A stretch of 5,316 nucleotides of DNA from a virus (Duplodnaviria > Heunggongvirae > Uroviricota > Caudoviricetes): positions 1 to 5,316 of IMG/VR virus record IMGVR_UViG_2671180903_000019, one strand, 5' to 3'. Position 1 is the first letter of the stretch, and the number at the start of each line of letters is the position of its first letter. A program made the translations under genes and the position numbers. Below, in pieces: positions 979 to 2,624 of the stretch. The notes under the pieces are model-generated. The model did not search any database. It was not told the DNA's origin and saw nothing but the letters and a program-made list of their open reading frames with translations.

Positions 979-1499
979 ATGTTTGCAGCAAAGCCCGAAT
1001 TAAGTCAAAGATGTATTTCTGGACTCCTCACAACTGGGCCAAATGATGAAAACGTAAATAATAAACCGTCAAGTGATATGCCGAACAGAATCAAACCAGT
1101 TGTAAGCGATTCACAAATCGGTATATATACAACTGACAGTAATACTCTGAAGGATGGATTGTGTAGCCAAGCCCACATAGGAACTCAACCTTATCGGCCA
1201 GGTGCTGACTCGCCGATAACTGTGAGATCATTCCTACAAATCACACTTTCCAACAATAATTACAAATCATTAGAGCATCTGCAAACACGAGCAGAGAATT
1301 ATCTGAGGTATCGCAAAGCAGAAGAGAATATTCTGCGTTCGACCGTTGAGGGGCTAACCAATCCAGAATCTCCTGTATTCAAACAAACAGCATGGATGGG
1401 GCATCTGGAGCGTGGCCTTTGGAAAACGGAAACACGCTGGGATGGAAACGACCGCGAGCAGCTAGGCAAAGAGGCTCTTGGCTCAGAGGAGCCAAAACC
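979..1499 (+). CDS. Hypothetical AT-rich ORF, probably 3'-truncated at the rearrangement junction; function unknown
   Basis: ATG at 979 with AAGGA 9 nt upstream and a possible promoter (TTGCAA 886-891, 17 bp, TATTTT 909-914). The N-terminus is rich in S/T/N/P. Past ~1500 the frame runs antisense through TerL DNA to a stop at 1779, so only 979-~1499 can be genuine. No family recognised. Confidence 0.25.
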
Positions 1500-2624
1500 T
1501 GTTTCCCTGTCACGGCCAGTCACGTACATTCCCAGCAGATCATCCAGGCCCCCGCCGTCAATCCCCACCGTCACCACATCAGCGCGCTGCAGGATATCGT
1601 CCAGGCTGACGCGCCTGCCCTGCTGCTCCCAGAAATCCGCCCCTGCCCAGCGGTCAGAACGCAGGGCAAGACCGATTTCCACATTGGCGTGTTTTGACAT
1701 GAAACCGCGGAAAGTCTCTTCCCCGGCTTCCCGGGCTTTACGATACTCCCGGTACAGAAAGGCCTCATCCACCGAATAACCGAGATTCGGGTTAACCATG
1801 GCGAGGTTTTCCATCAGCAGGTGCTCACCGCTCTCCACCATTTCAGGAGGATGCTCAAAAATCACCGGCAGAAAATGTGGATCATGAATTTTACCGTCGC
1901 GCACATCCCGGGCGTACTGCAGTTTCTGCCTGAACACCCCGGCAGGCGGCTCATTTGACTGGGTGGTTGTGTACACCACAAACCCTTCCGGACGTGAAGC
2001 CAGCCCGCCAATGGCTTCACGTAACATGTCCTCCGCCTTGTACTGCTTGCCAAACAGCCACAGTTCATCAATCAGCGTCCCCACGGACTTGATACCGGAC
2101 ACCGTATTCGGATCGGCTGCCACCACCTTCAGGGTGGTGTCCGTCACCCTGTGGGTGATGGTCCGGATATGTGTCTGCACCTGACAGAGGTCATCCAGAT
2201 CATCGTCCCGTCGTACCATATCCCTGGCAGGGTTGAAGGCGTTGGCTGCCACCTCCACTGTCGGGGCCAGAATCGTGTAACCCGCCGCCTGCCGCCAGTT
2301 CAGTAACAGTGCAGTCATCATGATCCCCGCGGCCAGCGTGGACTTCGAGTTTTTCTTGGGGATAAGGATAAACACTTCCTTGATATGGCGAACACCGGTC
2401 TGCGCATCGTAGGAGCCAAACAGGGCCGCCACCAGGTCAAACACCCACGGTGCACAGGACTCCCCGAATGTCGGGCTACCCGGTGCATCCACAATCCGCA
2501 GTTGTTTAAAAATCGCCAGTGCATGTGCAGCCTGGTCCGGATAAATCGGAGCCGGAATAATCGACAGCCCCTTTTTCAGGCGCTCTGCCCAGTCCGGACA
2601 TGCCGTGCTCCATACAGGTATCAT
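1299..2624 (-). CDS. Phage terminase large subunit (HK97-like), C-terminally truncated: recognisable sequence 2624 down to ~1500, likely non-functional
   Basis: ATG at 2624 overlaps the TerS stop (ATGA). The translation has the CPDWAERL N-terminus, an ATPase region and the start of the nuclease domain (VTVGIDGGGLDDLLGMYVTGRDRET). After ~375 aa it degenerates into low-complexity S/R/P/C-rich sequence until the stop at 1299, with no homologous continuation in any frame. Confidence 0.8.
   Translation of the reverse strand: MIPVWSTACPDWAERLKKGLSIIPAPIYPDQAAHALAIFKQLRIVDAPGSPTFGESCAPWVFDLVAALFGSYDAQTGVRHIKEVFILIPKKNSKSTLAAGIMMTALLLNWRQAAGYTILAPTVEVAANAFNPARDMVRRDDDLDDLCQVQTHIRTITHRVTDTTLKVVAADPNTVSGIKSVGTLIDELWLFGKQYKAEDMLREAIGGLASRPEGFVVYTTTQSNEPPAGVFRQKLQYARDVRDGKIHDPHFLPVIFEHPPEMVESGEHLLMENLAMVNPNLGYSVDEAFLYREYRKAREAGEETFRGFMSKHANVEIGLALRSDRWAGADFWEQQGRRVSLDDILQRADVVTVGIDGGGLDDLLGMYVTGRDRETGFGSSEPRASLPSCSRSFPSQRVSVFQRPRSRCPIHAVCLNTGDSGLVSPSTVERRIFSSALRYLR

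Follow-up and report, generated by a model that had tools for sequence, protein, structure and literature searches.

Why does a terminase large subunit (TerL) lose all similarity to other large terminases part of the way along its reading frame? The question is raised by a 441 amino acid frame on the minus strand, 1299-2624, found in a six-frame listing of the open reading frames of the window, that is, the whole stretch of 5,316 nucleotides analysed here (positions 1 to 5,316 of the Caudoviricetes record IMGVR_UViG_2671180903_000019). The initial annotation had described this frame as a convincing TerL through the ATPase domain and the first nuclease motif, with homology ending after about 375 residues, near position 1500, at a deletion or rearrangement junction. 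The first part of this description is well founded: residues 1-375 match the intact, 553 amino acid TerL of Escherichia coli E110019 at 373 of 375 positions in BLASTP, the TerL_ATPase domain (PF03354) is recovered by Pfam at residues 63-224 (E = 1.1e-11), and the first catalytic aspartate of the nuclease domain, D356, is kept. Past residue 375, BLASTP of the 441 amino acid frame finds no similarity to the E110019 protein. Alignment to this full-length TerL, which had been proposed as a check, locates the breakpoint at nucleotide 1501, and at the DNA level the crossover falls at 1501/1502. The frame is thus made of two parts:

1501-2624, minus strand: 5' part of terL, 374.7 codons, with the whole ATPase domain and the start of the RNase H-like nuclease domain, including D356.
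1299-1500, minus strand: fortuitous tail of 66 codons on the chimeric terL frame, lying antisense to the effector gene espV and 100% espV in three-way alignment.

The domain structure of the intact homologue makes clear what has been removed. In the 553 amino acid protein, PF03354 (residues 63-224) is followed by a TerL_nuclease domain (PF20441, residues 276-535), and the latter is not detected by Pfam in the 441 amino acid protein of the window, which is cut about 100 residues into the nuclease domain, just past the first catalytic aspartate motif (VGID356GG). The last 178 codons of terL are missing from the window. Residues 84-534 of the intact homologue align with the HK97 TerL (PDB 6Z6D, E = 4.4e-10) and share its two-domain architecture, while the window copy ends after the first catalytic aspartate of the nuclease domain. 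The catalytic residues of the HK97 nuclease are D302, D388 and D471 (PMC9410871); given a 10-residue offset in the numbering of the PDB chain, which we infer from the 6Z6D alignment, these would correspond to D356, D442 and D525 here. Only D356, the equivalent of D302, precedes the break, and D442 and D525 are lost. Measured against an HK97-type TerL, the window protein has the amino-terminal ASCE ATPase domain, and lacks a full RNase H-like nuclease domain with three catalytic acidic residues. Cleavage of cos of the HK97 type requires TerL together with the HNH protein (PMC9410871). Because two of the three catalytic aspartates of the nuclease are missing, the 441 amino acid product is not expected to cut cos, and the truncated terL is probably a pseudogene. 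The frame itself is uninterrupted and is still translationally coupled to the small terminase gene, terS, through an ATGA overlap.

The break is sharp. Base-by-base three-way alignments of the window, an espV parent and a terL parent, carried out with two independent pairs of parents, show espV identity running through G1501 and terL identity starting at G1501, with every base assigned to one parent or the other and no filler.

1501-1502, no strand: deletion junction, with G1501 common to both parents and lying in the pentamers GGTTC (espV side) and GTTTC (terL side).

The sequence common to both parents is therefore this one G, inside an imperfect 5-nucleotide match. Searches of 5,426 complete E. 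coli genomes and of phage records, with the whole window as query, agree with this placement: on the terL side, megablast matches begin at 1501, or in some records at 1504, and the matched records are annotated as terminase large subunit, terminase small subunit, HNH and TonB family proteins; the left-hand parent, from a different locus, matches window positions 1-1505 with up to 99.7% identity. Short direct repeats or the end of an insertion sequence had been suggested for 1490-1510. The search there found no insertion sequence end, no direct repeat and no notable inverted repeat, only the single shared base within the imperfect pentamer, and the repeats detected between 1000 and 2000 are short, imperfect and away from the junction. 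A deletion mediated by an insertion sequence can be rejected, as there is no terminal inverted repeat or remnant of such an element and every base belongs to espV or to terL. Homologous recombination is likewise rejected as the mechanism, there being essentially no homology at the crossover beyond the one G.

What lies to the left of the break is itself a truncated gene. The initial annotation had noted AT-rich DNA carrying an unrelated plus-strand frame, and the composition is as described, with a GC content of 0.35-0.43 across 801-1400 as opposed to 0.52-0.62 within terL. The plus-strand frame, however, is not simply an unrelated neighbor; it is the 5' part of espV, cut by the same event that cut terL.

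979-1501, plus strand: 5' fragment of espV, a type III secretion effector gene, 174 of 404 codons.

The plus-strand product is identical at 175 of 176 residues to WP_077776999.1 ('secretion protein EspV', 404 amino acids), with identity ending at residue 174-176, and at the DNA level identity to the reference loci is 98.7-99.7% as far as 1501-1505. The identification of espV rests on the RefSeq product name and this identity of about 99%; Pfam finds no domain in EspV or in the 266 amino acid plus-strand frame. That frame is open over 979-1779 and consists of 174 espV codons followed by 91 codons read from antisense terL, ending at a stop at 1779, so that in place of the full length of about 404 residues it holds residues 1-174 and then 91 residues out of context. 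The minus-strand tail had been called low-complexity, non-protein-like sequence, and it is indeed not the carboxy terminus of a TerL, but it has a real gene fragment behind it, being espV read from the reverse strand. The truncated espV retains its native upstream region, its start codon and its first 174 codons within the 979-1779 frame. Secretion signals of type III effectors are amino-terminal, and because the amino terminus of espV is kept, secretion of an EspV fragment with a nonsense tail is conceivable.

The left part of the window identifies the insertion site:

1-221, no strand: intergenic DNA of the core chromosome, between mlrA and btsS (yehU), the latter lying just outside the left edge of the window.
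222-289, plus strand: 5' stub of mlrA (yehV), 68 nucleotides, split by the prophage.
526-774, plus strand: intact DinI-like gene at the prophage end (PF06183, E = 5.8e-15; annotated DinI-like in reference genomes too).

Window positions 1-289 have a match in every one of the 5,426 complete E. coli genomes. Where the prophage is absent, this match stops at 289, in DNA annotated as mlrA, whereas a 47,874 bp E. coli O157:H7 record matches the window from 265 onward only, and the boundary between prophage and chromosome (att) accordingly lies at about 265-289. In four compared loci, including the source contig, btsS ends directly before window position 1. Both mlrA (PMC7067040) and yehV, as the site of Sp15 (PMC2669165), have been named as prophage integration sites. 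The window has the features expected at the end of an espV-nleA prophage at this site, namely insertion in the 5' part of mlrA beside btsS, with a dinI-like gene and espV at the prophage end, and it has no capsid, portal, tail or tail-fibre genes between 289 and 2624. As a separate observation, a short tandem repeat of about 2.3 copies (CCCCATTGATG) lies at 416-440, a little way into the prophage end, after the mlrA stub and before the dinI-like gene.

Comparison with intact prophages at the same site, also proposed in the initial annotation, supplies the missing context. Collinear, undeleted prophages are present in two complete genomes, E110019 (NZ_CP035751.1, about 2,869,005-2,903,800) and 2013C-4991 (NZ_CP027355.1), in both cases between btsS/mlrA' and the rest of mlrA. 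Their order is: btsS, mlrA', dinI-like, espV, nleA, an IS256 fragment, an OspG-family pseudogene, tail fibres, lom, J, tail assembly genes, tape measure, tail tube, head-tail genes, portal, capsid, terL (553 amino acids), terS, HNH, ylcI-like, TonB-like and lysis genes. The window shares with them the integration site, gene order and orientation, with DNA identity of 95-99% on both sides of the junction and an HNH protein identical to that of E110019; it differs in that they retain about 23.5 kb. In both, espV and terL are convergent, oriented as in the window, and the positions that correspond to the window breakpoints are separated by 23,535 bp in 2013C-4991 and by 23,515 bp in E110019. The window thus equals the intact prophage minus one contiguous block of about 23.5 kb, from espV codon 175 to terL codon 375. 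The missing block holds the 3' part of espV, nleA, the OspG-family pseudogene, tail fibres, lom, J, tail genes, the head-tail connector, portal, capsid and the 3' third of terL; the reported absence of portal, head and tail genes is explained by this block. The lineage has lost nleA and a functional espV along with the structural genes.

To the right of the break, the packaging module is retained:

2621-3184, minus strand: terS, small terminase, full length at 187 amino acids (PF03592), its stop overlapping the terL start (ATGA).
3185-3472, no strand: intergenic region between the HNH gene and terS, presumed location of cos by the HK97 arrangement.
3473-3838, minus strand: intact HNH endonuclease gene of the packaging module (PF01844).
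3820-4080, plus strand: DUF3950 (YlcI/YnfO) gene, by Pfam.
4212-4553, minus strand: gene with a TonB_C domain, by Pfam.
5098-5286, minus strand: Rz fragment at the right edge, by frame listing and Pfam layout.

TerS is identical to its E110019 counterpart at 171 of 187 residues with equal length, the HNH protein at 121 of 121 residues, and the interval between the two genes is 95.8% identical to that of E110019. In HK97-type packaging modules cos lies between the HNH gene and terS (PMC3592412); by analogy, a cos site may be placed in 3185-3472. The HNH gene is upstream of terS in the window as in the HK97-type HNH-cos-TerS-TerL module, although sequence identity to HK97 itself is low.

Taken together, these data support the junction proposed in the initial annotation and make it very probable that one internal deletion of about 23.5 kb in a prophage in mlrA (yehV) fused espV and terL tail-to-tail and removed the head and tail genes. 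The window would then represent the right end of a lambdoid prophage whose HNH/TerS/TerL packaging module is of the HK97 type and which is inserted in mlrA in an E. coli strain related to the attaching-and-effacing (A/E) pathotypes. In a single step, espV codon 175 on the plus strand would have been joined to terL codon 375 on the minus strand, leaving the two convergent genes tail-to-tail, and, given that there is essentially no homology, the event may have come about by illegitimate end-joining or by replication slippage. The anatomy is that of ordinary prophage decay by illegitimate recombination, a textbook non-homologous internal deletion, and the element is a deletion derivative of a known type: lambdoid, with an HK97-type terminase, an mlrA insertion and an espV-nleA effector locus. 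For related lineages, deletions in prophages at mlrA have already been noted (PMC7067040).

Recombination between two prophages in the same cell, by inversion or by a deletion that spans both, would be a different route to the same junction, in which the terL side need not have belonged to the mlrA prophage. Several near-identical lambdoid prophages are found per E. coli of A/E pathotype, the terL segment matches up to eight places per genome, and recombination between prophages is documented (PMC2669165, PMC7067040). Furthermore, the two flanks have different best-matching genomes: the left is 99.7% identical to O157:H16 98-3133 and the right 96.6% identical to E110019, and none of the genomes in the collections compared is more than 99% identical to both, so that the actual parent before the deletion is not among them. 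The source contig also ends inside Rz, which leaves the original membership of the terL side in the mlrA prophage a presumption. Against this route, the crossover shows no homology and is therefore not the product of homologous exchange between prophages, a deletion between distant prophages would take out large chromosomal segments, and the orientation and order are exactly those that would result if a block were deleted from inside the collinear prophage that two genomes carry at this site. We consider an origin from two prophages improbable, and retain a single deletion within the mlrA prophage as the preferred account.

The distribution of the junction is narrow. The end of contig CXZF01000021.1 (GCA_001283985.1) matches the window at 100% identity, and this contig stops 2 nucleotides past the window, inside Rz, probably owing to the collapse of near-identical lambdoid lysis regions in short-read assembly. 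A second assembly, GCA_001286345.2, differs from the window by one mismatch in 3,382 nucleotides. Three E. coli draft assemblies, deposited by different submitters, encode exactly this 441 amino acid chimeric protein (CTS19594.1, CTX64864.1 and KDZ47654.1, the last deposited from E. coli 3-073-06_S1_C1), and within a 90%-identity cluster of 6,313 members this exact sequence is recorded on three contigs only. None of the 5,426 complete E. coli genomes covers both sides of the break when queried with 261 nucleotides across it, a 40-nucleotide junction string has no match in the contigs of GTDB species representatives, and no phage record covers at least 80% of the window, the terL-side matches listed beginning at 1501 or 1504. 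Because the distribution is narrow and the retained 375 terL codons show no further decay, the deletion looks recent and lineage-restricted. The precise junction, …CCAAAACCTG/TTTCCCTGTC…, can be used as a marker of this lineage.

These records also bear on whether the junction is real. A source that is a draft contig ending in a repeated prophage region, together with a junction found in no complete genome, is what a chimeric short-read misassembly might look like; the same exact chimeric protein, however, is present in three assemblies of different accession series, and the one nucleotide shared by the parents gives an assembler no basis for a false join, which makes an artefact highly improbable. 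Least credible of all is that the frame is a genuine short terminase variant with a carboxy terminus of its own: the frame is uninterrupted and coupled to terS by ATGA, and the depositors call its product terminase large subunit, but the coding DNA of residues 376-441 is 100% espV antisense, these residues have no similarity to a TerL carboxy terminus, two of the three nuclease aspartates are absent, and the sequence is confined to the three contigs of its large cluster, so that the alignments refute a short-terminase family. The 'terminase' of these three draft genomes is thus better regarded as a chimeric pseudogene, probably produced by a deletion within the mlrA prophage, and should be flagged as such. 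Beyond this correction the locus has little general significance, and the depositors already annotate the product as terminase.

With terL truncated and every structural gene gone in the deletion of about 23.5 kb, the element is likely to be unable to build particles and to be defective for both packaging and morphogenesis, in line with the defect in packaging proposed in the initial annotation. Retention of the HNH gene, TerS and the presumed cos region leaves helper-dependent mobilisation as a legitimate option, because prophages of O157 Sakai without terminase or head genes are still packaged through co-resident prophages with near-identical cos (PMC2669165). Like the window element, Sakai Sp4 and Sp13 (PMC2669165) are lambdoid, have packaging and morphogenesis genes deleted or disrupted, keep a presumed cos, and belong to a host lineage in which several related prophages are typically present. 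They differ in that their packaging by co-resident prophages has been demonstrated, and the early region and integrase of the present element lie outside the window. We regard it as quite unlikely that the remnant is anything but inert, whether by being packaged by a helper through the presumed cos, by poisoning related terminases with its TerL fragment, or both. If the unseen early region is intact, the element would be about half of an intact prophage of about 49 kb, and a co-resident prophage of matching cos specificity may then package it, perhaps as a dimer. The coupled TerL fragment, with its ATPase and no working nuclease, may in turn poison the terminase of a helper or of superinfecting related phages. 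Were this so, the scar would be an accidental phage-interference or satellite-like element.

Some minor observations concern the parts of the prophage that the window and the intact references have in common or in which they vary. Two cargo-like genes, at 4212-4553 (minus strand) and 3820-4080 (plus strand), lie between the lysis and packaging modules, and both are conserved in the intact prophages; the TonB carboxy-terminal domain protein encoded at 4212-4553 has an amino terminus that appears lipoprotein-like by eye. Both intact reference prophages have a 2.6 kb portal gene labelled 'frameshifted', at the same place in each (locus coordinates 666-3250 and 27032-29616), which suggests that they have a programmed frameshift or fusion in common, or that an annotation problem recurs, and not that the two genes decayed independently. 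Finally, a segment of 272 nucleotides (4862-5133), containing a 74 amino acid frame (4877-5101, minus strand), is shared by the window and the E110019 prophage and absent from the otherwise collinear 2013C-4991 prophage; this makes the region between Rz and the TonB-like gene polymorphic for an indel.
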